Below are positions 1-63,982 of a DNA stretch of 64,000 nucleotides, one piece after another. The stretch is taken from the NCBI GenBank assembly GCA_965218825.1, contig OZ244656.1:3805038-3869037 (forward strand), given 5' to 3'. A model generated the notes under the pieces. The model did not search any database. It had not been told where the DNA came from and was given only the letters and a program-made list of their open reading frames with translations. The position numbers were made by a program, and so were the translations under genes. Within the stretch, counting starts at the first letter, position 1, and every line of letters starts with the position of its first letter. This stretch comes from Vicinamibacterales bacterium. GTDB taxonomy: Bacteria > Acidobacteriota > Vicinamibacteria > Vicinamibacterales > UBA8438.

Positions 1-4
1 CGGC

Positions 5-1069: not shown

Positions 1070-1186
1070 TCGGACCTCTCCCAGGGTTACATCCGCCCGC
1101 CCGCCGCTCACGCCAGTCGTGCGCCTGGCCATCAGGTGGGGGGCAAGGGCCAGGTATAATCAGGTATAAGAACGAAACAACCCTCC

Positions 1187-2539: not shown

Positions 2540-2560
2540 GCGCCGGCAGGATCTGACAGC

Positions 2561-3595: not shown

Positions 3596-3625
3596 TCTTG
3601 GCGTCCGGCCGTATGGTGCCGAGGC

Positions 3626-6427
3626 TTGGCACTGTCCTATGATAGACCCGTGGCGCCTATCCGATTCGCCGCGGTCGGTTCGATTGCACTCCTTCTGAAC
3701 ACGGTCTATCTCGTCGCATTCCCAACAGCCTCACTCGTCTACTTCACCAACGTTCTGCTGCACCCGGTTCTTGGCCTGGCAGTGGTCATTGCCATTGCGA
3801 TTGAGGCACGGCACCATGATTGGACGATCGGCCCGGTCCTGAGAGCCGGCATCGCGACCAGCGCCATCGCAGTGCTGGCGGGCCTCGCCATCGCGGTTGT
3901 TGGTGCCACGACCAACACGCGCCTCCTGGTGTATGCGCACGTTGTGACGGCGGTCGCGGGCGTGCTTCTCATCAGCGTGCACCTCTGGCGAGTTTCGCGC
4001 GAATGGCCGACGGTCAACGCGATACGTTTCTCGATCGTGACGCTGGCCATCATGCTAGCCGCGGCGCCTTGGGTGCGCTCGTGGAACGAGTCGGCCTGGC
4101 GCGACGCGTACAGCGTGGCGAACCCGACCGAGACGCCGCTGGACATGACCCAGGAGGGCGGTGGCGTCGAGAGTCCCTTCTTTCCGTCCTCGGCCAACAC
4201 GACGAGCGGCGATATCATTCCGGCGAACTTCTTTTTGACAAGCGAGATGTGCGCTCGGTGTCATCGAGACATTTACGATCAGTGGAACTCGTCCGTCCAC
4301 CACTTCTCGTCCTTCAACAACCAGTGGTATCGCAAGTCGATCGAGTACATGCAGGACGTGGTTGGGACCCAACCGTCCAAATGGTGTGCCGGATGTCACG
4401 ATCACGCCGTCTTCTTCAACGGTCGATTCGATCGACCGATGCGTGAGCAGATGGACACGCCCGAAGCTCAGGCCGGGCTCGGGTGTACGTCGTGCCACGC
4501 GGTGGTTCATGTGGGCGGCACGATGGGGCAGGGCGACTTCGTCATCGAGTACCCGCCGCTTCACGACCTTGCGACAAGCGACAACCCGATACTGGCGTGG
4601 ACGCACGATCGGCTGGCCTATCTGGCCCCTGAACCCCATCGTCGCACGTTCCTAAAGCCCTTTCACGAAGAGCGGAGTGAGGAATTCTGCTCGACATGTC
4701 ACAAGGTGCACCTCGACGAGCCCGTCAACCACTACCGGTGGATCCGGGGGTTCAACGAATACGACAACTGGCAGGCCTCGGGCGTGTCAGGCCAGGGCGC
4801 CCGTTCGTTCTATTACCCGCCGGAGCCACAGACGTGCAGGGACTGCCACATGCCCCTCGTTCCGTCGGATGATCCATCGGCGACGGACGGAGCCGTACGG
4901 TCACACCGTTTTGCCACGGCCAACACGGCCCTGCCTTTCGTCAACGGCGACGCCGACCAGCTTCAGGCCGTACAGGACTTCCTCACTGCCCGCCAGATCT
5001 CGGTCGATGTGTTTGGCGTTGCGAGGGTCGAGGAGGTGTCGCCGCTAGATGGGCAGGCCGCGGCGCGTACCGCTCCGGCATTGTCGAGTACGTTCGCCGT
5101 TGGGGAGGAATCACCAGGGTTCGGCGGAGGGGCCGCCACGACGACGTTCGCGCCTGCCGAGGTCGTCGCGCCGCTCGACGTCATTCCGGTCGCTGTGCGC
5201 CGCGGCGAGTCGGTGCGTGTCGAAGTAGTGCTTCGGACGCGCAACGTCGGACACTTCTTTCCTGGGGGAACCGTCGACGCGTTCGACGTGTGGGTCGAGT
5301 TTGAAGCGGTCGACGAGAACGGTCGCGTCCTTCTGCACAGCGGCGTGGTTGAGGACGACGGCCGCGGTCCCGTGGACCCCGCCGCGCACTTTTACGGCAG
5401 CTTCCAGCTGGACGGGCACGGCAACCAGATCAATAAACGCAACGCGTGGATGACGCGTTCGGTGGCGTATGTCCGGCTCGTCCCGCCGGGTGCAGCTGAC
5501 ACCGTGCACTATCGATTGCAAGTGCCGGAAGATGTTGGTGACCGTATCGTGCTTCGTGCCAAAGTGAACTACAGGAAGTTCGCCTGGTGGTATACACAGT
5601 GGGCCTACGCCGGCGTGCGTGACCCGGCGGAGTCGACTCCGGCTGTTGACGCCGGCTACGACGACGGCCCATGGCTTTTCACCGGCGATACCTCCACGGT
5701 CTCCGGTCCGATGAAGGAGATCCCAAACCTGCCAATTACGATCATGGCGGAGGCCGAGGCATCCCTCGTGGTCGTCGACGCGGACGCGCCGCTGCCGTCC
5801 GGCCCGTTGCCGGAGGGGGCGTCGTCGGATGTCCGTGGACGCTGGAACGACTATGGAATCGGTCTCCTGTTACAGGGTGATTTGCGAGGAGCCGCGAGCG
5901 CGTTCCAGCGGGTGATGGAGATCGATCCGGCCTATCCGGATGGGCCGGTGAATCTGGCTCGAGTACTTTTGCGAGAGGGCGACGTCCAACGAGCCCTTCC
6001 GCACCTCGAGTCGGCGCTCGAGCTCGCGCCGGGTCTGGCCCGTGCCCATGTCTTCCTTGGGATGGGCCTCAGGACGCTTGGACGGTATGACGAAGCCTTC
6101 AGCCACCTCGAAGCCGCACGCGCTCAGTACCCACGCGATCGCGTCGTGCTTGGCGAGCTGGGTCGCATCCACTTCCTCGAGCGACGGTTCGACGAGGCGA
6201 TCGCGACGTTCACCGATGTCTTGCGAATCGATCCTGAGGATCTGCAGGCCCACTACAACCTGATGCTGGCGTATCGTGGCGCAGGCGACCTCGAGCAGGC
6301 AGCCCGCGAGCAAGCGCTGTACGAGCGGTTCAAGGCCGACGAATCCGCGCAGGCGATTGCCGGACCGTTCTTGCTCCGGTCGCCCGAGGTCAACAACGAG
6401 CGACAGTCGGTTCACGAACATCGCTAG
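3626..6427 (+). CDS. Membrane-anchored multiheme c-type cytochrome fused to a C-terminal TPR domain
   Basis: There are about 5 N-terminal hydrophobic helices (residues ~14-150). Five CxxCH heme-binding motifs are present (CARCH nt 4250-4264, CAGCH, CTSCH, CSTCH, CRDCH nt 4835-4849). C-terminal TPR-like repeats occur (..AASAFQRVMEIDPAYPDG.., ..ALPHLESALELAPGLARAH.., ..AIATFTDVLRIDPEDLQAHYNL..). The start is uncertain (TTG at 3626). Confidence 0.8.
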   Translation: MALSYDRPVAPIRFAAVGSIALLLNTVYLVAFPTASLVYFTNVLLHPVLGLAVVIAIAIEARHHDWTIGPVLRAGIATSAIAVLAGLAIAVVGATTNTRLLVYAHVVTAVAGVLLISVHLWRVSREWPTVNAIRFSIVTLAIMLAAAPWVRSWNESAWRDAYSVANPTETPLDMTQEGGGVESPFFPSSANTTSGDIIPANFFLTSEMCARCHRDIYDQWNSSVHHFSSFNNQWYRKSIEYMQDVVGTQPSKWCAGCHDHAVFFNGRFDRPMREQMDTPEAQAGLGCTSCHAVVHVGGTMGQGDFVIEYPPLHDLATSDNPILAWTHDRLAYLAPEPHRRTFLKPFHEERSEEFCSTCHKVHLDEPVNHYRWIRGFNEYDNWQASGVSGQGARSFYYPPEPQTCRDCHMPLVPSDDPSATDGAVRSHRFATANTALPFVNGDADQLQAVQDFLTARQISVDVFGVARVEEVSPLDGQAAARTAPALSSTFAVGEESPGFGGGAATTTFAPAEVVAPLDVIPVAVRRGESVRVEVVLRTRNVGHFFPGGTVDAFDVWVEFEAVDENGRVLLHSGVVEDDGRGPVDPAAHFYGSFQLDGHGNQINKRNAWMTRSVAYVRLVPPGAADTVHYRLQVPEDVGDRIVLRAKVNYRKFAWWYTQWAYAGVRDPAESTPAVDAGYDDGPWLFTGDTSTVSGPMKEIPNLPITIMAEAEASLVVVDADAPLPSGPLPEGASSDVRGRWNDYGIGLLLQGDLRGAASAFQRVMEIDPAYPDGPVNLARVLLREGDVQRALPHLESALELAPGLARAHVFLGMGLRTLGRYDEAFSHLEAARAQYPRDRVVLGELGRIHFLERRFDEAIATFTDVLRIDPEDLQAHYNLMLAYRGAGDLEQAAREQALYERFKADESAQAIAGPFLLRSPEVNNERQSVHEHR

Positions 6428-6493
6428 TGGCGGCTTTTCCGCTCGCGCACGCTTACCGAAAAGCGCCAGATCCGTGCTGTACACTAGTGAAAA

Positions 6494-8263
6494 ATGACAT
6501 TTCAGTACGGACTGGCCACACCGAGCTTGGCGATCGTGTTGTTCTGGTCCGGCACGTTGGTCGGCTGCGGTGGGGCACCGTCTGAACCTACTACCGAGAT
6601 ACCGATTAAGCCCACGAAGACTCAGGACGGACACTCCTCGGGACCGACCCTGGCGTCAGACGTCGAGTTCGTCGATGTGACCGACGAGGTTGGGATTCGG
6701 TTCACGCACAACAGCGGAGCCACGGGCGACAGGCTCTTGCCCGAAACGCTTGGAGCCGGCGGGTTGGTCCTCGATGTCGATGCCGATGGATGGCAGGACG
6801 TCCTTCTGGTGAACTCGAAGGCGTGGCCAGGTGAGTCGGGCTCGCCGTCACATCCAGCGCTTTACCGCAACGCCGGTGACGGGACGTTTGTCAACATCTC
6901 CGGTGGGTCGGGGCTCGACGTCGAGCTTTACGGGATCGGCGGCGCGGTCGCAGACTACGACAACGACGGATATGTCGACATCTATCTGACGGCGCTGGGG
7001 CCAAACAGGTTGTTTCGGGGAAGAGGCGACGGGACGTTCTCGGATGTGACGGTATCCGCTGGAGTCGCGGGCCGTCGGTTTTCAACGAGCGCCGTGTGGT
7101 TCGACTACGATAACGATGGCCACCTCGACCTGTTCGTGGCGAACTACGTTGAATGGACGATCGACGGGGACTTGTTCTGCTCGCTTGACGGCGAGAACAA
7201 ATCGTACTGCACGCCAGAGGCCTACACCGGCCAAAGCCCGAACCTCTATCGCAATGCTGGTGACGGCACCTTTGAGGATGTGACAGCGGTCGCCGGCCTC
7301 GACGATCCGTCCTCGAAAGCGCTCGGCGTCGCCATGCTCGACTACGATGCTGACGGCTGGATGGATCTATTCGTGGCCAACGACACGGAGCCCGACCGCC
7401 TGTATCACAACCAGGGTGACGGGACGTTCACCGACAACGGCGTCGTGGCCGGCGTTGCTTTTAGCGAAGGCGGGGTTGCGCGTGCCGGTATGGGCGTCGA
7501 CGCGGCGGACTACGACGGGTCTGGACGCCCAAGCCTCGTGGTGGGTAACTTTTCGAACGAGATGATCGCGCTCTATCACAACGAGGGGAACGGCCTGTTC
7601 ATCGACGAAGCCCCGCGATCGGCCATTGGAAGCTCGTCGCTCCTGACCCTGGCGTTTAGCTGTTTCTTCTTCGACTACGACCTTGACGGACGTCCTGACA
7701 TCTTTGCGGCAAACGGTCACGTTGCCGACGATATCGAGCACGTGCAATCGAGCGTGACCTATGCGCAGCCGGCGCACTTGTTCCGGAACATGGGACCTGG
7801 TCGGTTCGAGGAGGTGACGGCTGTGGCGGGTACGGCGCTGGCGCGACCCACGGTAGCACGCGGTGCCGCCTATGGTGACTTCGATCTCGACGGCGACCCG
7901 GACCTTCTTGTCACGGCCAACAACGGCCCGGCCCGTGTCTTGCGCAACGACGGCGGTCACGCTAACAACGCACTGCGCGTAGTCACCGTGGGCACCGCAT
8001 CAAATCGTGATGGAATTGGCGCGCGAGTTGAAGTCATGATGAATGGCGAGTCGCGCTGGCAGATCGTCAAGACCGGATCAAGCTACGCCTCGCAAAGCGA
8101 GCTGCCGGTGACGTTCGGCGTCGGTACCGCTACCGCGGTGGAATCGCTGAGCGTCACCTGGCCGAGTGGAACGGTCGATCGGGTCGCCGGTGTCAACGCC
8201 AATCAACAGGTGACGGTGAAAGAGGGGGAGGGCGTGGTCGAGACGCGACCCTTTGAGCGCTAG
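6494..8263 (+). CDS. CRTAC1-family lipoprotein (FG-GAP/VCBS repeats + ASPIC/UnbV domain)
   Basis: Lipoprotein-type signal (..LFWSGTLVGCGG). Repeated Ca-binding FG-GAP motifs (DVDADGWQDVLLVN, DYDNDGYVDIYL, DYDNDGHLDLFVANY, DYDADGWMDLFVAND, DYDLDGRPDIFAANG, DFDLDGDPDLLV). C-terminal UnbV/ASPIC signature (SNRDGIGARVEV...GSSYASQSELPVTFGVG). Confidence 0.85.
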   Translation: MTFQYGLATPSLAIVLFWSGTLVGCGGAPSEPTTEIPIKPTKTQDGHSSGPTLASDVEFVDVTDEVGIRFTHNSGATGDRLLPETLGAGGLVLDVDADGWQDVLLVNSKAWPGESGSPSHPALYRNAGDGTFVNISGGSGLDVELYGIGGAVADYDNDGYVDIYLTALGPNRLFRGRGDGTFSDVTVSAGVAGRRFSTSAVWFDYDNDGHLDLFVANYVEWTIDGDLFCSLDGENKSYCTPEAYTGQSPNLYRNAGDGTFEDVTAVAGLDDPSSKALGVAMLDYDADGWMDLFVANDTEPDRLYHNQGDGTFTDNGVVAGVAFSEGGVARAGMGVDAADYDGSGRPSLVVGNFSNEMIALYHNEGNGLFIDEAPRSAIGSSSLLTLAFSCFFFDYDLDGRPDIFAANGHVADDIEHVQSSVTYAQPAHLFRNMGPGRFEEVTAVAGTALARPTVARGAAYGDFDLDGDPDLLVTANNGPARVLRNDGGHANNALRVVTVGTASNRDGIGARVEVMMNGESRWQIVKTGSSYASQSELPVTFGVGTATAVESLSVTWPSGTVDRVAGVNANQQVTVKEGEGVVETRPFER

Positions 8264-11200
8264 TGGCAGCAACAACACGACGACAGCTGGTCGGACTCTG
8301 GGGCGTGCTGGTCGGGTGTGCCACCGCAACGTGTGGTGGCGGCCCTGAGCTACCGCTCGCCAACGAGGCAACCTACCGCGCGAACAATCAAGGCGTCGCG
8401 CTGCTCGAGCAGTTCGACTATCAGCCGGCGGCCGAGGCGTTTCGCGAGGCGCTCGATCTGGACGAGTCACACGCGGCTGCCCGGGTCAACCTCGCGATAG
8501 CCCTGTTCCTCGAGCAGGATCTCGAAGGCGCGAATCGAGAAGCAACCGCAGCGGCTGCGGATTTGCCGTCAGCGCTCGAGCCGCCGTACCTGCGCGGACT
8601 GGTCGCGCGGGCGCAGAATCGCCTCGACGACGCCATGGTCGCCTTCGGCACAGTTCTCGAGGCCGATCCAATTGACGTCGGCACAAACATCAACTTGGGT
8701 CAGATCTACCTGGAGATGCGCGACTATCCGGCCGCGATCGAGCGACTCCGGATCGCATACGAACACGAGCCCTTCAACGTCACCGCTGTCTACAACCTGG
8801 GCCTCGCCCTAGCCCGCAGTGGCGAGACCGCGGCGGGGCAGGCGCTGCTGGAACAGGCGCAGGCGTTGAGGTCGACGGAGTACGCCGTCACGTACAACAC
8901 GGGATACCTGCAACAGGGTCGCTACGCCGAGGCGATCGCCTCCACGGGTGCCGAGGCGGAGCTGGTTGATACCGCCGTACCCACGAGCGTATTCACGTCG
9001 CTCGAGGTTGGATCGTGGTCGCCATCTTCCACCCCGACGTCGCCATTTGGTCGTCGGTTTGCCGCCGACGATCTGACCGACGACGGCGTTCGTGAACTTG
9101 TGGCTGGGTTGGGCGGCGGAGTGGCGCCATTCGACTTCGACATGGATGGGGATCTTGATCTGTTCGTCGCGATGCCGGACGGAGAACGCTTGATGCGTAA
9201 CGACGGCGCAGGCCGCTGGGCGGAGGTCACGGCGTCAGCCGGACTGTCGGTTGCCCCCGATGACGGCGTTCCCATCGGCGCCATCGTGGCGGACTACAAC
9301 AACGACGAAGCACTCGATCTCTTCGTGCTCCGCTATGGCGGAAGCAGCCTCTATCAGAGCGATGGCGCTGGCAGCTTTACAGACGTGACGTCGTCGGCCG
9401 GCCTCTCGGACATCACACAGGCGCATGTGCCGGGCGCTGCGGCCTTTGCCGATCTCGATCATGACGGCGACGCCGACCTCATCATCGCCGGTCTCGCTGA
9501 TGTAGAGTCGTCGCTCGTATCGTTGGCAGAGGGCGCGTCGCTGCTGTTTCCCGAGGAGTTCGCACCGGCGCCGTTGCGCGTGCTCCGCAATAACCAGGAC
9601 GGGTCGTTCACCGATGTCACGGATGCGTCAGAAGTCGCGTTTTCAGGTCATGCCGTGGCGGTGGTGCCGACCGATTTCGACAACCGCCGAGATGTCGACC
9701 TGCTCGTGATCGATCGCGGCGGACCGCCCCGACTGTTCATGAACCTGCGGGACTCGACGTTTCGGGACGTTGCGTCTGAGGTGGGACTGGCGACTGCTGG
9801 CAACGCGATCGCGACGGTGTCGGCGGGAGACGTGAACAAAGACGACTTTCCTGACTTCGTCCTCGGGCGTGCCTCCGACGCCCTTGTCGCGCTGAGCGAT
9901 GGGCGGGGGCGATTTACGCTTGTTCCCGCTCCGGACGGAGCAGGCGACGCCAGCGCTCTCCGATTGCTCGACTACGACAACGACGGCTTGCTCGACTTGC
10001 TCGCGTGGGTGACCGACGGACCCCGGCTGTTCCGAAATCTTGGCCAGGACTGGAGCGATGTGTCCGGCACGGCGTTCGCCAGCTTCACCACCGAAGCGCC
10101 GGCGCCGGGCGCGGGTGGCCTTGGCGTTGCCGACATCGATCGTGACGGTGACAGCGATATCGTCGCGGTTGGCCCGGAGCGCGTCGTGATCGCTGAGAAC
10201 AGCGGAGATTCGCGGAACGCGTCAATTCGGATCGGGCTCCGCGGACTGGTTAGCAATCGCGCCGGGATTGGGGCGAAGGTGCAGCTGCGCGCCGGCAGCT
10301 TGAGTTCGCGTTTGGAGGCGTCGTCGGCGACGCCCGCGGCGGCACCGGCCGATCTGGTCTTCGGCATTGGGCGGCGACCCGGCGCGGACGTGGCCCGGGT
10401 GTTGTGGCCTTCCGGCATCTTGCAGGCCGAAGTGCCGGAACAGGACTACCTCTCGTCCGAGTTGGATGTCCAAGAGCTTGACCGCGAGCCCTCGTCGTGT
10501 CCGTTTCTCTTCACGTGGAACGGCAACCGGTTCGAGTTCGTCACCGATTTCCTCGGAGGCGGCGAGATGGGGCTGTGGCATGGTCCGGATCGCTACAACA
10601 CGCCGGATCCGGTGGAGTACGTCCGGATTCGGGATGACCAGTTGAAGCCGAAAGACGGGTTCCTCGAGCTCAGGGTCACGAGCGAACTTGAGGAGGCGGT
10701 CTTCTTCGACCATTTGGAGCTGGTGGTCCTGGAGCACCCTCGCGACGTTCAGATCTACCCGAACGAAGGCCTGACCGATCCGCCCAAACCGCACCAGCTG
10801 CACGCCGTGCGTGACCCTCGCGTCCCGGATCGCGTGCGAGACGAGAGCGGAAGCGACGTCACCGATCTGGTTGCGCAGATCGATGGGCGCTCCCCCGAGG
10901 GCTTTGCGCTGGCCCCATTTCGGGGCTATGCCGAAATCCACAGTCTGATTCTCGATCTGGGGGCGTCCAGCGACTCTGCCGTCCTCCTGCTTACCGGTTG
11001 GACCTCGTACGCGTTCTCGAGCGACAACCTTGCCGCGCTGCAAGCTGGGCTTACGCCCATCGTACCGGCGCTGGAAATCAAGGACACGAGCGGGACCTGG
11101 CGTCCGGCTGGAGTCGATATGGGATTCCCGGTGGGCCGGCCGCAGACCATCGCGGTCGACCTGACCGATCACCTTCAAGCCGGTGAGCACGAGCTCCGGA

Positions 11201-54963: not shown

Positions 54964-56688
54964 ATGAAGAAGATGAAGAGGATGAAGAGACTGCTTGGGG
55001 TCCTTGCTTTCGCCGCCATCGCCGCGCTGCTGATCCCGGTCGTTGCGAGTCAGCAGGATTCCGCGTATTCGCCTGTTACCGATCAACATCTCCGAAATCC
55101 GCCGCCGGAGGATTGGCTCATGTACCGGCGAACCTACGACAGCTGGGGCTACAGCCCATTGGATCAAATCACGACGGCTAATGTTGATCGGCTCGTGCCC
55201 GCCTGGACGTTTTCGACCGGGGTCAATTCGGGTCACCAGGCACCGCCACAGGTCCGGGACGGCGTCATGTTCGTGTCTACACCCGGTAACCAAGTGCTCG
55301 CGCTCGATGCTCGGTCAGGCGAGTTGCTCTGGCGTTACGTGAGGGACGTACCCGACGGGTGTTGCGGCCATCGCACGAACCGGGGCGTCGGCCTCTACGG
55401 TGACCTGGTGTTTGTGACGACCCAGGATGCGCATGTCGTCGCGCTCAACGCCCTTACCGGGGCCGTCGAATGGGACACAACCATTGAAGACCACCGCAAC
55501 GGGTACTACATGACGATGGCGCCGTTGGTCGCCAACGGCAAGGTGATGGTCGGGGTTTCAGGTGGCGAGCGCGGGATCCGCGGGTTTGTCGCGTCGCTCG
55601 ATGCGAGCGACGGCCGTGAGCTCTGGCGCGCGTTCACCGTGCCAGGTCCCGACGAGCCTGGCGGCGATACATGGCCGGGTGAGACCTGGCGAAACGGAGG
55701 GGCTGCCGTGTGGATCACCGGCTCGTTCGATCCGGAGCTCAACCTAACCTACTGGGGCACCGGGAACCCTGGTCCGTGGATCGGCGACATGCGCCCTGGG
55801 GATAACCTCTATACGAATTCGGTGATTGCCCTAGACGCGGACACGGGTGAGCTGAAGGGGTACCACCAGTATCACTGGAACGGCTCGTGGGACTGGGACG
55901 AAGTGTCGGCGCCACTTCTGATCGACGTCAACCGCGACGGTCGAACGATTCCAAGCCTTGTTCATCCGGCTCGAAACGGCTACTTGTGGGTCCTCGAACG
56001 TGCTGCCAGCGCCATCCACTTCGTCGGCGCTCAACCCTATGTGTATCAGAACGTGTTCACCAGCGTCGACGATGAGACCGGACGTCCCACGTACGATCCG
56101 GACCGCACACCCGGAACTGGGAAACGTGCCGAGTTTTGTCCGTCGCTCTGGGGTGGGAAAGACTGGCCGCCTGCGGCGTTCAGTCCCGTCACCGGGTACC
56201 TGTATATCCCAGCCAACGAAGGACTTTGTTCGGCGATTGAGGGTGTTCCGGTTGAGTACGAGCCCGGCCGCGGATACACGGGCGCGGTCATGGAGCACTT
56301 CGTCCGAGAGGGCGTCGACCATCTGGGCGAGCTACAAGCCTGGGATCTTGATGCTGGCGAGCGGGTGTGGACCCATGAGTTTGCATCGCACAACTGGGGC
56401 CCCGTGCTGGCGACCGGCGGCGGTCTGGTCTTCGCGGGCGGTACGAACGACCGGTACTTCCGCGCGTTTGACGCCGAAACGGGCGACGTCCTGTGGCAGC
56501 AACGGACCAACTCCGGCGTGACTGGGGTGCCGACAAGTTATGCGATCGACGGTGTTCAGTACGTGGCGGTGCAGTCGGGTTATGGCGTCGACGCGCAGAC
56601 GATGCAGGGGGTGGTCAACCGGAGCCGTGGCGAGGACTTCCAGGTACCCCAAGGCGGGGTTATCTGGGTGTTTGCGCTCCGAGACTAA
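54964..56688 (+). CDS. PQQ-dependent alcohol (methanol/ethanol-family) dehydrogenase, exported
   Basis: Signal peptide. Vicinal Cys pair DGCCGH. Propeller W-motifs. Active-site WDWD (Asp310-Trp-Asp312, nt 55891-55899). Length is typical of XoxF/ExaA-type enzymes. Confidence 0.9.
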   Translation: MKKMKRMKRLLGVLAFAAIAALLIPVVASQQDSAYSPVTDQHLRNPPPEDWLMYRRTYDSWGYSPLDQITTANVDRLVPAWTFSTGVNSGHQAPPQVRDGVMFVSTPGNQVLALDARSGELLWRYVRDVPDGCCGHRTNRGVGLYGDLVFVTTQDAHVVALNALTGAVEWDTTIEDHRNGYYMTMAPLVANGKVMVGVSGGERGIRGFVASLDASDGRELWRAFTVPGPDEPGGDTWPGETWRNGGAAVWITGSFDPELNLTYWGTGNPGPWIGDMRPGDNLYTNSVIALDADTGELKGYHQYHWNGSWDWDEVSAPLLIDVNRDGRTIPSLVHPARNGYLWVLERAASAIHFVGAQPYVYQNVFTSVDDETGRPTYDPDRTPGTGKRAEFCPSLWGGKDWPPAAFSPVTGYLYIPANEGLCSAIEGVPVEYEPGRGYTGAVMEHFVREGVDHLGELQAWDLDAGERVWTHEFASHNWGPVLATGGGLVFAGGTNDRYFRAFDAETGDVLWQQRTNSGVTGVPTSYAIDGVQYVAVQSGYGVDAQTMQGVVNRSRGEDFQVPQGGVIWVFALRD

Positions 56689-57943
56689 TGGGCGACGCTG
56701 TCGCTCCGGCGGACGGAGGCGTTCGACAGACGGCAACGTAGCGTCGGCCGTTCGTATTGGGATCGGAGTTGTCGGACGTCGATAGATAGACGGCCGGACC
56801 CCAGTGAGAGTAGCGACCGTCCCCTCGCTCCCAGATTTCTTTGTGCGGCGTGTGGGCGGGGCCAAGCAGGCGCCCGTCCTCTAACAGCAGCGTCGGTACG
56901 TCTTGGTTGATCTCGGTGTCTCCCAACGGCACGTCCGCCGGAAGCCGATACGTCCAGCAATGACCCCGCTCATGCCGGTAGGGCCCGGGTAGCTCGCGGA
57001 CATCCCACTCGCCTTCTCTGGTCACCAGGTCAATCAGGATGTCAGTCGCGTGACGGTATTGAGGCGCCATGAACTTCCGCGCTCGAACCTCGGCGAGTTC
57101 CTGATAGGCCTCGATCCCGGTGTATGGGATGTAGCTTGGCTCACGTGAGACACCCGTGGCCTCCATCCGCCATCCGGCCAACAACATGTACTGCTCGCAG
57201 TGCAGCGGATCCGGGTTATGGCGTCGGATCAGGTCGCGCCATGGTCCATACGAGTTGAGCGCGATCTCAAAGCCAGCAGCCTTCAACGTCACCAGGAGCG
57301 CGGCCAGCCCTTGGTACCGCTCTTGGCCCGTGATGTGGATCTCAACGAGGACGTTCTTCACCCGATCGAGACGATTACCCAGGTGGGGCACGAGGTCGAA
57401 CTCCGCACCCTCTACGTCGAGCTTGAGCAAATCGATGTCCTGGTCGAGATACGCGGCTAAGTCAACGGTCCGAACTGACGTAGACGCCGGCGGGATCGCC
57501 GCGCACGTGGCCGCGAGACGCGAGCCGTCCTTTCGCTCGGTCACCCACGGGGCTTGGCCGGACGCCGTCCAGACCGCCGCGTCGACCACGACGACGTCAC
57601 CAGCACCGTTGCGCTCGAGGTTTCGGCGCAGCAGCGGTAGGAACACAGGATCCGGCTCGAAGGCGGTAATCTGAGCGCCTGGGTACTGACGCTTGTAGTG
57701 CAGCGTCGTGTATCCGATGTTCGCCCCGCAATCGAGAATTACGGGGTGGGTGTGATCGGCGATGAAGTCGTTCATTCGACGGAAGAGGATCTGATCCACG
57801 CAGGCGAGCAGGCTTTCCGGTGACGGGTACTCGAGGTCCCACCCGAGGGCTGTCACGCGTCCGGGGCCATCGGCTTGACTCGACACCAGCGAGTGCAGCC
57901 GTCGATGTTCCTCGAACAAGCGTTGGTGTGTGAATTCGTCCAT
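56660..57943 (-). CDS. FkbM-family methyltransferase with a conserved uncharacterised C-terminal module
   Basis: FkbM motif ILDCGANIGYTTLHYKRQYPGAQITAFEPDP and LKLDVEGAE. The C-terminal module contains GRYSHWGPAVYLSTSDNSDPNTNGRRY. The 3' end overlaps the convergent PQQ gene by 29 nt. Confidence 0.8.
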   Translation of the reverse strand: MDEFTHQRLFEEHRRLHSLVSSQADGPGRVTALGWDLEYPSPESLLACVDQILFRRMNDFIADHTHPVILDCGANIGYTTLHYKRQYPGAQITAFEPDPVFLPLLRRNLERNGAGDVVVVDAAVWTASGQAPWVTERKDGSRLAATCAAIPPASTSVRTVDLAAYLDQDIDLLKLDVEGAEFDLVPHLGNRLDRVKNVLVEIHITGQERYQGLAALLVTLKAAGFEIALNSYGPWRDLIRRHNPDPLHCEQYMLLAGWRMEATGVSREPSYIPYTGIEAYQELAEVRARKFMAPQYRHATDILIDLVTREGEWDVRELPGPYRHERGHCWTYRLPADVPLGDTEINQDVPTLLLEDGRLLGPAHTPHKEIWERGDGRYSHWGPAVYLSTSDNSDPNTNGRRYVAVCRTPPSAGATASPISLGAQTPR

Positions 57944-57955
57944 GCGCGCGGATAG

Positions 57956-59188
57956 CTATTTGGCGAACCCGATTCGATAGGTTCGCTGATTCGTGTTCGG
58001 ATTTGAGTTGTCCGACGTCGACAGGATCAACCGGTCCTTCCAATGAGAGTACGCACCCCGGCCTCGCGCGCGGATCTCGTCGTGCGCGGCGTGCCTCAAC
58101 CACAACGGTTCGTCATCTTCGAGCACGATGAGTCGCGACCGATGCGGCGACTCGAGGTCGTCAGCCCTCCCTGCAAGCCTGGTCAGTTTCACCTGCCAGG
58201 CAAAGCCGACCTCCGGCTCGAACGGGTCGGCGATCGGCTCGAGACTGCCGGGATCGAGCGCCACCGGATCGGGTACGCGAGTCCCTTGGTCGTCGAACGT
58301 CGGCCGCGCGAACTCCCGCTTCACGCCATACACGTGGTAGGCGACCGGTTCCGGCTCTGACGCGTTCAGCGTCGCGACGCTACCGAATCCCTCGCGGCGG
58401 AACCACTCATGGACCGTTCCCTCCTCGATGACCCAATTGTAGAAGGGGTTGAGCATGTCCATGTAGTTGATGGCGTTGGCTGAATCCTCGGCAATCGCGT
58501 AGACGTACTGCAGTCGTTCATCCGCTGTCGCGAGTTGCCGATGATAGGTCAAGCGGTGGCGGAGCACGTCTGGGCTGTTGTGATAAGTCGGCGCATAGAC
58601 CATGACATACAGTCCCCCTCCGGGTCGGACTGTGCGCGCTGCATTCTCGAACGCAGCGGCCGGATCGTGTGTCGACATGGCCACGCCCCAGAGCAAGGCG
58701 AAATCGAATCGATCGTGGAGGTCGGTCCGCTCGGCGATGTCGAACAAGCTCACACGCTCGACGTCCTTGTTGAAGCGTCGGACCGAGGCGAGCGCGTGGT
58801 CGGACACGTCGATCGATTTGACGTCTCCCCCGAGCGCCTGCAACGCTCTCGTCCATCGGCCGGCCCCACAGGCAATGTCGAGGCATCGCTTGCCTTGGAA
58901 GTAGTCCGCGCGAAAACGCAGGTCGAGTTTCTGTCGCCCGCCCACGTTCCTTGCCGCCGGCGCGTCGCCCGTGACGAGCACGCCACGCTGTCCGGTCAGG
59001 TCGTAAATGCGATCGTCGATCCAGGCGTCGTCGGTCTCGACGCCGGTGTGGGTCGTGAACCCGGGCTGCTTCTCGAGAAAGAGTCGCCACTGGGCGTCGA
59101 ACTGCGTGCTGTAGTCGATAGGGCCGTACTGTCCCCTGTAGCTGTCTTTCCAGATGACGCGACCGTGATCGAAGTGGGGATTCGTCAC
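57956..59188 (-). CDS. Class I SAM-dependent methyltransferase with the same C-terminal module
   Basis: Motif I CLDIACGAGRWTRAL, post-I KSIDVS, GGGLYVMVY. The C-terminal module contains GAYSHWKDRLILSTSDNSNPNTNQRTY. The GTG start overlaps the upstream stop (GTGA). Confidence 0.8.
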   Translation of the reverse strand: MTNPHFDHGRVIWKDSYRGQYGPIDYSTQFDAQWRLFLEKQPGFTTHTGVETDDAWIDDRIYDLTGQRGVLVTGDAPAARNVGGRQKLDLRFRADYFQGKRCLDIACGAGRWTRALQALGGDVKSIDVSDHALASVRRFNKDVERVSLFDIAERTDLHDRFDFALLWGVAMSTHDPAAAFENAARTVRPGGGLYVMVYAPTYHNSPDVLRHRLTYHRQLATADERLQYVYAIAEDSANAINYMDMLNPFYNWVIEEGTVHEWFRREGFGSVATLNASEPEPVAYHVYGVKREFARPTFDDQGTRVPDPVALDPGSLEPIADPFEPEVGFAWQVKLTRLAGRADDLESPHRSRLIVLEDDEPLWLRHAAHDEIRARGRGAYSHWKDRLILSTSDNSNPNTNQRTYRIGFAK

Positions 59189-60222
59189 GCGGCTGCTCCG
59201 ATTTGCCCGTGCGGCTCAGTCGCTGTCAGCGTCGTTGAGCGACACGGATTGGTTGCGCAGGCCGTCACTCGGTAGCGGCGGCCGTTCTGGTTCGGATTGG
59301 TGTTGTCGCTTGTCGAGAACATCACGATGTCGTTCCAGTGTGAAAAGCGTCCGCCTCCGAGGTGACGGATGTCGTCGTGTGCCGCATGGGGACCGGCGAG
59401 CCGTGCGCCGTCCTCGGTCACCTGCAACATCGAGCGCTGCGGGTGCCCGGCATTGTCGGCGAAGCGTGACGCGTCAGGCACCGACGCTGTCCAGGCGAAC
59501 CCGGTATCGTGCGCGAATGGTGGTGTGAGTGACCGTCCGAGGCCTTCGTCCAGACCCAGCACGGTTGGGCCTCGGTCGGAAGCCGGCTCGTCGTTCGGGG
59601 CGAAGCCGTAGGACTCGAATGCATCACGTTCGGCATCCTCGAGTTCGTGACGCAGCGTTGACGCGAGATCCACGTTCGCACCTGCGCTGACGTTGACGCG
59701 CGAGCGGCGTCGAAGACCGACGACATCGACCTCGATGTGTAGCAGCCTCATCACCGCGAAGAGGTCCCCGGCGAGTTGCTCCTGGTGTCCGACGAAGTGG
59801 GCATCGACCGTGTAGTAGCGATACATACGGGCCAGGAAGCCGGGCCGTTGGCGCAACACGTTCTTGATAAACCCGTGAAAGGTCGAGGCTCGCAACCCGT
59901 TCAATTCGACAGACGGATTCCAGGCGTCGTCGTCCGTATCCCACCCCGGCCAACCGCGCTCGACGTTCATCCGGTACCAGGACTCGTACCAACGCAGGGG
60001 ATGCCGGACAAAGCAGAACCTGAACGGCATCCGGTTCGGGCGAGCGTACCGGGAGGGCGTCTCGAGCAGTCGCTCGAGCGGTGCAAGCTGTGGCGGACCC
60101 GCATGTTTGCCTGCCACGTGTGCAAACACGAGGTCGTGAGCCTCGAGGACTTCCGTGACCCAGTTGCCGCCGGTCTTGGGAACGTGGAGGAAGAGTCCGC
60201 CAGACTTGAGAAGAATCGCCAT
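59185..60222 (-). CDS. Sulfotransferase-family protein (Sulfotransfer_2-like) with the same C-terminal module
   Basis: The PAPS 5'-phosphosulfate-binding-like motif LFLHVPKTGGNW lies close to the N-terminus when the start is placed at ATG 60222, 2 nt after the upstream stop. The longest ORF start at 60321 would overlap the upstream gene by ~100 nt. The C-terminal module contains GRFSHWNDIVMFSTSDNTNPNQNGRRY. Confidence 0.75.
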   Translation of the reverse strand: MAILLKSGGLFLHVPKTGGNWVTEVLEAHDLVFAHVAGKHAGPPQLAPLERLLETPSRYARPNRMPFRFCFVRHPLRWYESWYRMNVERGWPGWDTDDDAWNPSVELNGLRASTFHGFIKNVLRQRPGFLARMYRYYTVDAHFVGHQEQLAGDLFAVMRLLHIEVDVVGLRRRSRVNVSAGANVDLASTLRHELEDAERDAFESYGFAPNDEPASDRGPTVLGLDEGLGRSLTPPFAHDTGFAWTASVPDASRFADNAGHPQRSMLQVTEDGARLAGPHAAHDDIRHLGGGRFSHWNDIVMFSTSDNTNPNQNGRRYRVTACATNPCRSTTLTATEPHGQIGAAA

Positions 60223-60224
60223 TG

Positions 60225-60737
60225 CTAGTACGAACTCCCCAACCGATGTCTCCGACTGCCAGCCAGCGCACCAGGCAGGAAGAGCAGAAGTCCGAGGACG
60301 GCGAGAACGCCGCACGAACACAACGCGCGGTGCAACTCGCGCGCGACCTGCGTCGCGGTACGGCGGGACACGATGGTCCCGTCAGGGGTGACGGCTTCGA
60401 AACCGCCGGGGGCGACCAGGAGCGCGGTCCGGTCGACGTTGGACTGACCGGTGCCGGTACGGTCGGGCCACAGAACCGAGACCCGGTCGAAACGCTGCCT
60501 CCACAAGCGGAGGGCGAGGCCACTCCGCACAAGTTCCATCGGCCCGAACCGAGGAGCGACATCGTAGCTGAGGCATCGCTCCACGCGGTCGTCCGGCTCC
60601 ACGACCTTCCGATCGGTGCCGCGTGTTACGAGTACCGTCACTCGGCAGCCGGGAGACACCATCGTCAACGCATCGAGCGCGACACCGAGGTGACGTCCGG
60701 ACCGGATCAACAGGACACGTTCACGCCGCGCGAGCAT
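60225..60737 (-). CDS. Hypothetical protein with a C-terminal TM helix
   Basis: It lies inside the operon. The start is placed at MLARRERVLLIRSG (60737), overlapping the asnB stop by 17 nt. The C-terminal hydrophobic segment is CSCGVLAVLGLLLFLPGALAG. No family recognised. Confidence 0.45.
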   Translation of the reverse strand: MLARRERVLLIRSGRHLGVALDALTMVSPGCRVTVLVTRGTDRKVVEPDDRVERCLSYDVAPRFGPMELVRSGLALRLWRQRFDRVSVLWPDRTGTGQSNVDRTALLVAPGGFEAVTPDGTIVSRRTATQVARELHRALCSCGVLAVLGLLLFLPGALAGSRRHRLGSSY

Positions 60738-62646
60738 ACGCCCCCTCTCCGGATGCATCGAGTACGTCGGTTGCCCAGCTCTCGAGGATGAACAGCGTCC
60801 AAACCTTCCGCCAGACCGTATCGTCGCCCGCATAGAACCGCTCGACGAGCGTCTCGGTCGCGTTCACGTCGAACGCTCCACGACGTCTGACGCGCAGAGG
60901 GCTGAGCAGGTCCAGGATGTGATCTCTGAGCGTCCGTCGCATCCACGTGTTGTAGGGCAGCCCAAATCCCATCTTGCGCCTGAACAGAATCTCATCCGGC
61001 AGCAGATCTCGAAGCGCATGTTTCAAGATCCATTTGCCCGTGCCGTTGCGATACTTCATGTGCCATGGAACCCGGGCCACGTCGGCCGCGAATTCCAGAT
61101 CCAGGAAGGGCACTCGAACCTCGAGTGAGTGGGCCATCGACATAGCATCGATGTCTCGCAGCAGCACGTACGACAGATAGCCTCGCTGCTCGAGGCGGGA
61201 GATCCAATCGCCGGGTCGCGCGAGATCGGCGGGAACGTCGGTTCGGAGGAAGGAGGCCGAAGGCGCGAATCCTCCGTTGCGGGCCAAGAGGTCAGCCGAG
61301 ACCGCTGTCCGCGCCTCGGACTCGTCGAAGATACCGATGATGTGAGGAGAGACGAACTCGCGGTCGAGACACGCGAACGTTCGCGCCGCCGTTCGCAATC
61401 GTTCGGCGCGGTCCCACATCGGCGCGTCTCGGTCGACGAGACGATCCAGCCATCCGACAACGCGACGAACGTAGCCGGCGGGTAGTGAACGAAGCACACC
61501 AGCGGTTGCTGCATGGTCGAGGAGATGTGCGTCGCGGTCGTACCCCAGGAACAACTCGTCGCCCCCGGTGCCCGACAACGCCACCGTCACGTGCTCGGAC
61601 GCGGCGTGCGACACCCAGTAGGAGTTGATACCGTCGGAGGTCGGTTGGTCCATCGCCCAAACTGCATGCGGTAACGCCTCACGAAACATGTCCTCCGTCA
61701 GCACGAGCTCATGGTGGTCGGTCTCGTAGCGCTCCGCCACGATTCGTGCCCAGGGCCATTCGCTCAACACCGCCTCGTCCGGCCCCACGAACCCGACCGA
61801 AAAGGTCTTGAGCGGTCGAGCGCTATGACGCGACGCCAACGCGACGAGGGCGCTCGAATCGACGCCGCCCGACAGGAACACACCCAGGGGCCGCTCGCTC
61901 ATCATCTGACGACGGACCGCAGCCTCGAGGCCGTCACGCACGATCTCGGTGGCTTCGTCAACCGATGTCACCGCGTGGCGGTCCTCTCTCGGCGGCGTCC
62001 AGTAGGTGCGCTGGGTCGTTTCGCGCGCGGTGTGTTGCAGCAGCCGTCCCGGCTCGAGCTGGTGAACGCCGGCCACCATCGACAACGGTGCCGGGACGGC
62101 CTGGTATTGGAGGTACTGGCCGACCGCTTCAGGCTCGAGTTCACGGGCCACCCGCCCGCTCGCAAGGATCGCCTTGAGCTCAGACGCAAAAAGGAACGTG
62201 TCATGTTGGACCGTCCAGTAGAGAGGCTTCACCCCATGCGGGTCTCTGGCGAGGAGCAGTCGCTCGGCCCTTTGGTCCCACAATGCGAACGCGAAAATGC
62301 CATTGAGGTCGTCCACGGCTCGCGTTCCGCGCTCTTCGTATAAATGGACGATCACTTCGCCGTCGCTGCCGGTCCGGAACCGGTGACCGCGGCTCTCGAG
62401 ATCACGTCTAAGGTCTCGATGGTTGTAGATCTCTCCGTTGAAGATGAGTTGGACGGTCTGGTCCTCGTTCTCCAGTGGCTGGTGGCCGCCGGCCACATCG
62501 ATGATCGACAGCCGGCGGAATCCGAGCGCGACCGTGTCGTCGACGAAGAAGCCTGAATCGTCAGGGCCGCGATGGGTCATCGCGCTGGCCATGCGCTCCA
62601 CGATCCCTCGGTCGGGCTCACCGAACGTGCCACAGATGCCACACAT
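60721..62646 (-). CDS. asnB: Asparagine synthase (glutamine-hydrolysing), AsnB family
   Basis: Ntn amidotransferase start MCGICG (ATG 62646, 8 nt after the upstream stop). RGPD, LIFNGEIYN. Synthetase PP-loop FLSGGVDSS. Confidence 0.9.
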   Translation of the reverse strand: MCGICGTFGEPDRGIVERMASAMTHRGPDDSGFFVDDTVALGFRRLSIIDVAGGHQPLENEDQTVQLIFNGEIYNHRDLRRDLESRGHRFRTGSDGEVIVHLYEERGTRAVDDLNGIFAFALWDQRAERLLLARDPHGVKPLYWTVQHDTFLFASELKAILASGRVARELEPEAVGQYLQYQAVPAPLSMVAGVHQLEPGRLLQHTARETTQRTYWTPPREDRHAVTSVDEATEIVRDGLEAAVRRQMMSERPLGVFLSGGVDSSALVALASRHSARPLKTFSVGFVGPDEAVLSEWPWARIVAERYETDHHELVLTEDMFREALPHAVWAMDQPTSDGINSYWVSHAASEHVTVALSGTGGDELFLGYDRDAHLLDHAATAGVLRSLPAGYVRRVVGWLDRLVDRDAPMWDRAERLRTAARTFACLDREFVSPHIIGIFDESEARTAVSADLLARNGGFAPSASFLRTDVPADLARPGDWISRLEQRGYLSYVLLRDIDAMSMAHSLEVRVPFLDLEFAADVARVPWHMKYRNGTGKWILKHALRDLLPDEILFRRKMGFGLPYNTWMRRTLRDHILDLLSPLRVRRRGAFDVNATETLVERFYAGDDTVWRKVWTLFILESWATDVLDASGEGAYARAA

Positions 62647-62653
62647 GGCAGTA

Positions 62654-63982
62654 CTAGGCTGCCGTCGCCCGAATGAGGGGCAGGGCGGTGTTGGTGACGA
62701 ACTCGAGCGTCCCGAAATCGCGCTTTGCGACAAGGCCGGCGGCGAGCAGTTGTTCGGAAATCGCGGCACGTCCCGGCAGCGATGCCACGATTACGAAGTC
62801 GTAGTCGCCCCGGTCGAGTTGGTCGAAGCGCTGAACGGTATGGTCGGCGAACACGGTCCCCAGCTTCGCGGGGGAGTTGTCGCACACGGCAACAACGCGA
62901 TCGGCAAGGTCGAGGGACTGAAGCTGGCGAATGGTCGCCAGTCCCGCCGCGCCCGCGCCAAAGACCACGAACCGTGTCGTGTCAGCCGCCGGTAGGACAG
63001 ACTGCAGCACAGGAAGTGTCTGAGCGTCGTTCCGGCGGCCGCGAACGGATGTCGGGAAATCTAACAACTCCAGACCACGAAGACCAGCCTCAGAGAACCA
63101 GCGAATGACCCGTGCCGGCGAGCAGCCCTTGTCTTGAAAGCGGGGCGTATACCAATCGAACGTGTCCAGCACGCGCCAGCGAAAGTCGGGATGCGTGTTA
63201 ACTGGCAGCACGCGTGGGACGTGCCAGAACGGTGCACGTCGCATCAGCCGACTCTTGTACAGCCGTGAGAACAACACCACCAGCAGCCAGGACCACGCGT
63301 AGGCGATTCGCGTGGGGACGCGGCAGAAGATGGACCGCCAGTAGTCGGTAGCCAAGTTGTAGAGCTGATCGGTGTAGTAGTACAGCCAGACCGCGATGGT
63401 GCCGCCATCCTTGAGGTGTCGGGGCAGCTTCAGAAACGCGTCGCGGGTGTTCTTGGTGTGGTGCAGTACGCCAATCGAGAAGATGACATCGAACAAGTCA
63501 TCCTTGAGGGGGAGAGCGAACACGTCAGCTTGAATGATGTCGACATCACGCTGCCGACCCAAGGTCGTCTGCGCCGCCTCCACGGCAAAGGAGTAGTCGA
63601 TGCCGATGACTCGTCCACCCCACCGAGTCACGACATCGAAGAAACGTCCCGCACCGCAGCCGACGTCGAGTACCAGCTTGTCCCGCACGTCTTTGGGTCT
63701 GAGGCCAGTCTTTTCGATGAACGTGTCCTCGGACTCGGCACGGCCGTTGACGATGTCGAGTTGCACGTCGTTCCAGCGGTTCCACTCGTAGGAGAAGCTC
63801 TTCACGTAGCCGTCGGATTGGACGAAGCGAGGCACGCCACGGAGGATCGGATAGGACCGCCCACAGGAGTCGCAGCCGAGGCTGCCGGTTTCGACACCGC
63901 CGGCCTGTTCGGTCTCAACTTCAAGGGCGAGGTCTGCCCGACACGTCGGGCAGCACAAGTGTTCGACGAGGTCTTTCTTCAT
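62654..63982 (-). CDS. Fusion protein: Trm112-like zinc ribbon + class I SAM methyltransferase + C-terminal Rossmann-like domain
   Basis: N-terminus: LCCPTCRADL...CDSCGRSYPILRGVPRF. Methyltransferase motif I: LVLDVGCGAGRF. C-terminus: RFVVFGAGAAGLATIRQL (GxGxxG). GGAG RBS lies 8-11 nt upstream of the ATG. Confidence 0.8.
   Translation of the reverse strand: MKKDLVEHLCCPTCRADLALEVETEQAGGVETGSLGCDSCGRSYPILRGVPRFVQSDGYVKSFSYEWNRWNDVQLDIVNGRAESEDTFIEKTGLRPKDVRDKLVLDVGCGAGRFFDVVTRWGGRVIGIDYSFAVEAAQTTLGRQRDVDIIQADVFALPLKDDLFDVIFSIGVLHHTKNTRDAFLKLPRHLKDGGTIAVWLYYYTDQLYNLATDYWRSIFCRVPTRIAYAWSWLLVVLFSRLYKSRLMRRAPFWHVPRVLPVNTHPDFRWRVLDTFDWYTPRFQDKGCSPARVIRWFSEAGLRGLELLDFPTSVRGRRNDAQTLPVLQSVLPAADTTRFVVFGAGAAGLATIRQLQSLDLADRVVAVCDNSPAKLGTVFADHTVQRFDQLDRGDYDFVIVASLPGRAAISEQLLAAGLVAKRDFGTLEFVTNTALPLIRATAA

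Follow-up and report, generated by a model that had tools for sequence, protein, structure and literature searches.

In a 64,000-nucleotide stretch of DNA from a Vicinamibacterales bacterium (Acidobacteriota; contig OZ244656.1, positions 3,805,038 to 3,869,037; hereafter the window), three consecutive minus-strand genes, here called A, B and C, encode tailoring enzymes whose catalytic heads are unrelated and whose C-terminal tails are copies of one domain. This domain, which we refer to as the module, is widespread, is promiscuously fused to other proteins and is clustered with genes for glycan synthesis. We propose for it a non-catalytic role in targeting, through recognition of a nascent or exported glycan, a reading in which we place about as much belief as doubt; we infer both that the module binds and that what it binds is a glycan.

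A common tail on three enzymes

The ORFs of A, B and C lie where the first-pass annotation of the window had placed them, and in pairwise BLASTP comparisons with composition correction only the tails align (A with B, E 4e-13; B with C, E 4e-23; A with C, E 2e-18), at 40–41% identity over 86–124 aligned residues. The 24 columns that are invariant among the three tails are distributed along the whole of their approximately 85 residues, and the likeness extends beyond the STSDNSNPN stretch, to which the annotation had allowed that it might be limited, to a G-x-x-W strand, E-D, H-x-x-H-x-x-I, G-x-G-x-x-S-H-W and R-x-Y. Judged from these alignments, the similarity is far beyond chance. While an S/D/N/P-rich stretch does resemble low-complexity sequence, the idea that the tails are alike by chance, or through a low-complexity or compositional artefact of a GC-rich genome, is refuted by the BLASTP values (E 4e-13 to 4e-23), by a family census with more than 3,300 clusters at E≤1e-10 and by an AlphaFold model with a predicted local distance difference test score (pLDDT) of 97, and its probability is negligible.

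The isolated tails, searched against Pfam-A (2025) to E 10, gave a single chance match (TERB2, E 0.2); in the full-length proteins no Pfam or NCBIfam (release 20) family covers the tail, and the profile of the module family found nothing among PDB sequences (best E 0.86). Modelling and structural search, which the annotation had recommended as a check, gave a confident fold without a counterpart. The AlphaFold model of the B tail, built on a 121-sequence alignment, has a pLDDT of 97.3 and a predicted template modelling score (pTM) of 0.88, and consists of five short strands, two short helices and a long conserved S-T-S-D-N-S-D-P-N-T-N-G-R loop; Foldseek found no match to it in the PDB at E≤1e-3, the best being a haemoglobin-binding domain (TM 0.52, E 0.89). 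A literature search by motif and keywords found no description of the module. On the strength of the model, the module is predicted to be an autonomous domain of about 85–90 residues that is in no named family, and its fold is apparently new; the earlier statement that the tail could be assigned to no named domain thus stands, and the well-characterized domain that might have explained it away did not turn up. Among 682 distinct copies the conserved signature comprises S31, E37 (99%), H46, H49, I52, G56, G58, S-H-W at 61–63, F-S-x-S-D-N-S-D-P at 69–77 (with D73 at 99%), N80, G81, R82 and Y84 (99%).

Gene A (56660–57943, minus strand; 427 amino acids) encodes a methyltransferase of the FkbM family, with matches above cutoff to both PF05050 (52.3 bits, cutoff 22.7) and TIGR01444 (83.6 bits, cutoff 37.7) and a sequence that has neither a signal peptide nor a transmembrane segment. 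Its catalytic domain occupies residues 71–226 (57266–57733), and its module residues 320–405 or thereabouts (56729–56986; module hidden Markov model (HMM) E 4.8e-32); the 22 residues that follow are not conserved. Gene B (57956–59188, minus strand; 410 amino acids) encodes a class I S-adenosylmethionine (SAM) methyltransferase with the SAM motif LDIACGAGRW, a catalytic domain at residues 91–221 (58526–58918; PF13489, 60.6 bits, cutoff 27, E 2e-16) and a module at about residues 322–406 (57971–58225; E 2.2e-34). The product of gene C (59185–60219, minus strand; 344 amino acids) joins a sulfotransferase-like domain at residues 1–205 or so (59605–60219) to a module at about 234–319 (59263–59520; E 2.1e-35). 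The coordinates given for the three module copies are HMM envelopes.

The head of gene C required closer examination. The whole protein has no Pfam or NCBIfam match, and the head alone scores 15.4 bits against Sulfotransfer_2 (PF03567), under the cutoff of 22, and matches no PDB sequence. It does contain LHVPKTGG, a motif like that of the 5'-phosphosulfate-binding (5'-PSB) loop, and in the gene C family profile FLHVPKTGG aligns, weakly (E 0.33), with FLHIQKTGG of heparan sulfate 6-O-sulfotransferase. PF03567 is found in ten listed homologues of gene C (nine of the head only and one full-length), and another homologue of the head alone bears the NCBI name sulfotransferase family 2. The AlphaFold model of the full-length protein has a pLDDT of 91.4 and a pTM of 0.89, with lower values (pLDDT 72–78) in a linker at residues 208–230 or thereabouts, and all of its 50 best Foldseek matches in the PDB are sulfotransferases, albeit weak ones (E 4.6e-3 to 0.23; probability at most 0.97). 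Because the homologues, the loop alignment and the structural matches agree, the evidence points to a divergent sulfotransferase fold of the type that uses 3'-phosphoadenosine 5'-phosphosulfate (PAPS); the sulfotransferase label first given to gene C therefore holds at the level of fold and distant homologues only, with PF03567 remaining below its cutoff.

The module family and its surroundings

The extent of the family was gauged, as the annotation had suggested, by a profile search, in which 58 copies of the module were used to search 1.84 billion representative proteins. Clustered at 50% identity, the family comprises at least 4,309 clusters at E≤1e-3, and 3,312 at E≤1e-10. The 120 best matches of a first search were small proteins of 66–154 residues, mostly an N-terminal hydrophobic helix followed by the module, and such a helix is present in 105 of 141 free-standing copies. 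When the positive-inside rule is applied to these 105, the excess of charge lies on the module side in 48 and on the N-terminal side in 37, and is equal in 20; because the flanking charges are split in this way, the free-standing module can probably face either side of the membrane, and no single topology is assignable to it. Other proteins, of up to 1,648 residues, carry tandem arrays of two to six copies, some behind N-termini resembling signal peptides or those of lipoproteins. Where a protein carries a single fused copy, this lies at the C-terminus in 86 cases, at the N-terminus in 45 and internally in four. The description of the module as C-terminal, drawn from genes A, B and C, is thus too narrow: it is also found N-terminally, inside proteins, as the sole domain after a transmembrane helix and in tandem up to six times.

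From 471 proteins we extracted 286 non-module segments, which fall into 82 BLAST clusters. Radical SAM/SPASM proteins are the largest class of partner (31 members), and class I methyltransferases account for 20; the other methyltransferase and sulfotransferase partners are Methyltransf_24, TylF, FkbM, Sulfotransfer_2 and Sulfotransfer_3, some of the sulfotransferases having TPR repeats. The module is further joined to family 4 glycosyltransferases (GT4), to Maf/MptE-like, SGNH/AlgX-like and beta-helix/NosD-like proteins, to pectate lyase, transglutaminase-like and sulfatase domains, and to DUF4838 and PKD, and several large groups of partners, including two of polytopic membrane proteins, have no family at all. 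All of the partners that can be annotated belong to families that are plausibly carbohydrate-active or that are common in glycan gene clusters. The same signature residues are carried by cytoplasmic SAM enzymes and by the putative exported tandem proteins, suggesting that the module works on both sides of the membrane. In three Wzt ATPases from two phyla (two Anaerolineales and one Maridesulfovibrio) it is inserted between the two known domains, in the order ABC_tran, module, Wzt_C (2407–4059 of locus L011, 3353–5131 of L012 and 5110–6843 of L027).

Mobile elements and viruses were also searched. A plasmid collection gave one module match, an SGNH hydrolase, and a phage collection none. In giant viruses (Hyperionvirus and Harvfovirus), Foldseek found the same fold in predicted viral structures (BFVD entries A0A3G5ADE5, A0A3G5AEI9, A0A3G5A2W3, A0A3G5AAL9 and A0A3G5A4X5), with TM values of 0.79–0.95 and 27–38% identity; the carriers are annotated as GT8-like, glutamine amidotransferase type 2 (GATase-2), radical SAM and class I methyltransferase proteins, and bacterial contamination of the viral bins is possible. 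These viral carriers represent the same guild of enzymes as the bacterial partners.

A genome scan with an eight-sequence alignment, confined to copies with the pattern DNS[DN]PNTN, returned 80 loci from Acidobacteriota, Chloroflexota, Planctomycetota, Nitrospirota, Alpha- and Gammaproteobacteria, Desulfobacterota and Gemmatimonadota, the cultured carriers including Azospirillum (such as A. lipoferum Sp59b), Magnetospirillum (such as sp. SS-4) and Bradyrhizobium. Half of these loci (40) have two to six different module-bearing genes inside 12 kb. Among the module-free genes in 22 of these multi-gene loci, methyltransferases (15), GT4 enzymes (14) and AsnB-like proteins (8) predominate, accompanied by ABC_tran proteins, epimerases or dehydratases, and aminotransferases. 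Of the 80 loci, 27 have an AsnB-like gene within some 6 kb of the module-bearing genes, as do 24 of the 60 with enzyme fusions, and such a gene is also present in L005, L094 and L095; these are raw counts, not enrichments. Free-standing copies in a Burkholderiaceae and a Gemmataceae metagenome-assembled genome (MAG) are found in clusters that encode a Wzt with Wzt_C, with giant multi-domain glycosyltransferases adjoining.

In Pedobacter sp. B4-66, a protein annotated as 'pectate lyase' (WP_214225524.1; 10001–11758 of L094) has three N-terminal copies of the module followed by PF00544, and its gene belongs not to a pectin-utilization locus but to a polysaccharide biosynthesis cluster with an initiating transferase, GT2 and GT4 enzymes, an AsnB-like gene and acetyltransferases, which suggests that this lyase processes the cell's own polymer. 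In Bradyrhizobium (8001–8405 of L004, and about 20 Bradyrhizobium loci that include L030, L034 and L053) the module is mostly an orphan gene encoding a membrane-anchored free-standing protein, in which positive charge before the helix suggests that the module is periplasmic.

The operon and its relatives

The operon in the window encodes, in order, a Trm112-methyltransferase, an AsnB-like amidotransferase, a membrane protein of 170 residues, C, B and A. Its first visible gene (62654–63982, minus strand; 442 amino acids) lacks the module and couples a Trm112-like zinc ribbon (residues 1–53) to a class I methyltransferase, with a C-terminal extension of about 110 residues that has a faint match to the Rossmann-type GFO_IDH_MocA domain. 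The AsnB-like protein (60721–62646, minus strand; 641 amino acids from an MCGI start) is a glutamine-dependent amidotransferase with the Pfam domains Asn_synthase and GATase, whose top NCBIfam match, TIGR03108 (XrtA/PEP-CTERM amidotransferase), is below cutoff. The third gene (60225–60737, minus strand), which was called on the source contig, shares 17 nucleotides with the 3' end of the AsnB-like gene and always follows that gene (L001, L003 and L008); its product has a C-terminal transmembrane helix and no module, and gave no Pfam or NCBIfam match. While the longest ORF of gene C is 59185–60321, the source contig calls its start at the ATG at 60219, 2 nucleotides past the upstream stop, and this is likely the real one. 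The close junctions seen at first pass are confirmed, the start of B and the stop of C overlapping as GTGA (59185–59188) and B being separated from A by 12 nucleotides. At its 3' end, gene A overlaps that of a convergent gene for a dehydrogenase dependent on pyrroloquinoline quinone (PQQ) (54964–56688, plus strand) by 29 nucleotides (56660–56688).

Just beyond the end of the window, a divergent operon is headed by a gene for a putative Maf/MptE-like glycosyltransferase of 767 amino acids (plus strand, equivalent to about 64224–66527; 2662–4965 of L001, minus strand), with GT4 genes next to it. The protein matches PF01973 (113.7 bits, cutoff 34.6) and PDB 5MU5 (E 9.4e-8), and because it too ends in the module (E 1.6e-18) the cluster has four module-bearing enzymes. 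The window matches a 977-kb ENA metagenome contig without a difference. Its DNA is about 80% identical to, and collinear with, that of a Vicinamibacterales MAG, and a more distant Vicinamibacterales MAG has the same set of genes in a different order. In this more distant MAG (L008), a syntenic cluster of C, B, A, Maf, GT4, methyltransferase and AsnB genes (1–9850) abuts motA, motB, cheA, cheW and cheR. Another relative, L003 (ENA contig ctg586587, 7598–10288; about 81% DNA identity), has lost C and most of B, and its AsnB-like gene has been inverted and broken into two ORFs; of B, the module alone survives, in an ORF of 95 amino acids (P0007) whose N-terminus corresponds to AsnB sequence read in antisense. 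Even close relatives thus differ in their gene set.

Some of these genes raise the question of whether the cluster decorates a glycoprotein rather than a polysaccharide, the module then recognizing a protein or peptide substrate as a counterpart of the part of flagellin glycosyltransferases that binds flagellin or of the recognition element (RRE) of ribosomally synthesized and post-translationally modified peptides (RiPPs). Radical SAM/SPASM enzymes are after all the largest class of partner, the Maf-like enzyme belongs to a family of flagellin glycosyltransferases (PDB 5MU5, E 9e-8), and the L008 cluster abuts motA, motB and che genes. We nevertheless consider this explanation very doubtful. 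A tblastn search of the window and of L001–L093 with a flagellin N-terminal sequence turned up no flagellin gene, the neighbours (sugar-nucleotide enzymes, GT4, an initiating transferase and Wzt) are those of polysaccharide pathways, and there is neither a PqqD Pfam match nor an RRE fold match. A flagellin glycosylation island, to which the Maf-like gene and the mot and che genes of L008 had pointed, was set aside on the missing flagellin gene and is kept as a minor rival. A cluster for a lasso peptide or another RiPP, suggested by the AsnB homologue and the SPASM partners, was rejected: the AsnB-like protein has kept the MCGI N-terminus of a glutamine amidotransferase intact, a point against its being a lasso-peptide cyclase, and its neighbours are sugar-pathway genes.

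Proposed glycan targeting and competing explanations

The module itself is not catalytic, since it is too small, is too often repeated and is found on too many enzymes that are already complete. If it is a targeting device, it would be a portable one that recognizes some feature of a polysaccharide, either on the lipid-linked nascent chain in the cytoplasm or on the finished polymer outside. In the operon described here, the module would hold four cytoplasmic enzymes (A, B, C and the Maf-like protein) on one nascent glycan, so that several decorations could be placed on a single chain; the glycan itself would be made by the GT4 enzymes and the AsnB-like amidotransferase encoded nearby, and at a later stage the module would recruit lyases or other proteins to the chain once exported. 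The polymer itself is favoured as the ligand because the annotated partners and most of the annotated neighbours are sugar-related and the module occurs in both compartments, and the presence of the same signature on cytoplasmic and putative exported proteins is what one would expect if the ligand were a polymer that crosses the membrane. The insertion in Wzt places the module beside a domain that is known to read the terminus of a glycan. As a tentative guess, the ligand may be a polymer that contains uronic acids, because pectate-lyase folds and AsnB-type amidotransferases recur among the partners and neighbours and one of the giant-virus partners bears the annotation GT8 galacturonosyltransferase-like; pectate-lyase folds act only on uronic acids, and AsnB-type amidotransferases amidate carboxylates.

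Several observations weigh against glycan targeting. The largest partner class, radical SAM/SPASM, is also found in peptide-modifying pathways; 36 free-standing copies without an anchor are left unexplained, as are the anchored orphans of Bradyrhizobium, which sit outside obvious glycan clusters; and in the Foldseek search of the PDB no solved carbohydrate-binding module resembled the fold. A further observation is the near-invariance of the signature across phyla (E37, D73 and Y84 at 99% in 682 copies). Modules from the same cluster are 44% identical to one another compared with 41% between genomes, and 93 of 110 modules have their closest relative in another genome. Cluster-specific tuning, for which we looked, was not seen, and the near-invariant signature and the lack of likeness within clusters imply that the module is not tuned to the glycan of each cluster. 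It must therefore recognize some generic feature, contain a metal site with a structural role or interact with a conserved protein.

The last of these is the basis of the main rival to glycan targeting, in which the module is a domain for protein–protein docking or oligomerization that joins tailoring enzymes, polymerizing glycosyltransferases and the Wzt exporter in a membrane-associated complex, the modules binding each other or a common scaffold and the anchored free-standing copies serving as docking sites. A near-invariant surface signature without cluster-specific tuning is what would be expected of a conserved protein interface, and half of the loci have several module-bearing genes per cluster. 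In Wzt clusters, free-standing copies with a transmembrane helix are immediate neighbours of large glycosyltransferase genes and of a methyltransferase that carries the module; the greater positive charge on the module side of many anchored copies would make their modules cytoplasmic, and the insertion in Wzt would likewise be in keeping with docking. A free-standing copy is present, however, in just 14 of the 60 loci with enzyme fusions, and there is none in the 21 kb of the window's own cluster; arrays of two to six copies in putative exported lyase, beta-helix or PKD proteins are typical of polymer binding by avidity and not of the assembly of complexes. On balance we regard docking as possible but rather improbable. 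The first-pass suggestion that a common module brings different activities to one substrate or scaffold is strengthened in so far as it concerns targeting, with the module now known from dozens of chemically different glycan enzymes and typically several times per cluster, be the target an acceptor or a docking partner.

The conserved residues might instead be those of a small metal-binding domain with a chemical or regulatory role of its own, built on a His/Glu/Asp centre or a Ca2+ loop. Residues E37, H46, H49, H62 and D73, together with the Asp/Asn/Ser-rich loop, are 83–99% conserved in the 682 copies, and equally so in both compartments. Such an independent role is unlikely, given a domain of just 85 residues or so, arrays of up to six copies, fusion to about 80 types of already complete enzyme and the replacement of the histidines in 13–17% of copies; moreover, a structural metal site would be compatible with a binding module.

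Comparison with known systems helps to define what kind of module this may be. Wzt_C (PF14524) reads the modified terminus of the nascent chain (PMC9445017). Like the module, it is a small non-catalytic domain on the cytoplasmic part of a pathway for glycan assembly and export, and the two are encoded in gene clusters of one kind and share a polypeptide in three proteins (L011, L012 and L027), where they form adjacent but distinct units. No homology between them was detected, Wzt_C has about 140 residues to the module's 85 or so, and the module is added to Wzt_C and does not replace it, being found also on tailoring enzymes, on exported proteins and alone. The candidate explanation that the module is a divergent Wzt_C was rejected on comparing its profile with five Wzt_C sequences (hhalign probability 0.2%, E 0.31).

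The carbohydrate-binding modules (CBMs) of CAZy are likewise discrete non-catalytic units, fused at either end of carbohydrate-active enzymes and often in tandem, and the module shares this architecture, including its presence on pectate-lyase and beta-helix proteins, the binding itself being presumed. It differs in that no Pfam CBM matches it, that Foldseek matches it to no solved structure, and that most of its partners are not degradative but cytoplasmic biosynthetic enzymes dependent on SAM, PAPS or radical SAM. WbdD (described in PMC3482155) is the chain terminator of the Escherichia coli O9a O-antigen, a methyltransferase and kinase. Its C-terminal region resembles the module in being an accessory part of a terminating methyltransferase that positions the enzyme at a membrane-bound site of glycan assembly, although it does so through a coiled coil and an amphipathic helix and not a globular domain, and has no sequence similarity to the module. 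That region recruits WbdD to the membrane and to WbdA, and so tethers the O9a machinery, an arrangement that the docking explanation resembles.

In how it would work, the closest analogue of the module is the PqqD-like RRE. RREs are domains of about 85–90 residues that are fused to unrelated tailoring enzymes (radical SAM/SPASM proteins and methyltransferases) or stand alone, and that deliver all of these to one substrate; their fold is a winged helix-turn-helix that binds a leader peptide. The module is similarly small, fused or free-standing, and common to the chemically different enzymes of one cluster. It differs from the RRE in having no Pfam match to PqqD (PF05402), no PqqD or RRE among its Foldseek matches, a predicted fold of five strands and two short helices, and a gene context that is that of polysaccharides and not of peptides. 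The module belongs to none of the three groups (Wzt_C, the CAZy CBMs and the RRE), and its range is unusual, covering cytoplasmic tailoring enzymes, an exporter, exported enzymes, membrane-anchored free-standing forms and giant viruses.

More speculatively, the module may be the polysaccharide counterpart of the RRE, a 'glycan recognition element' with a new fold; we offer this as a tentative idea that is more easily doubted than believed. Such an element would read one conserved feature, possibly a uronate or a uronamide made with the co-occurring AsnB-type amidotransferase. It would be a common address tag for proteins that polymerize, tailor (by methyl, sulfate, acyl or radical-SAM chemistry), export (Wzt) and cleave (lyase) the chain, and the tag would hold on both sides of the membrane, in at least eight bacterial phyla and in giant viruses.

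Whatever its function, the module represents a large domain family that lies outside the current domain libraries and that deserves a family definition and an experimental structure, and its presence on giant-virus glycosylation enzymes links the glycan machineries of bacteria and viruses. If targeting is its role, it would account for how soluble enzymes that depend on SAM or PAPS reach a nascent glycan bound to the membrane, would provide a sequence handle for all of the enzymes that act on one polymer in uncultured bacteria, and could serve as a portable tag for glyco-engineering. Should it prove to be a glycan recognition element, it would mark an unrecognized and widespread class of heavily decorated polysaccharides, together with every enzyme that acts on them.

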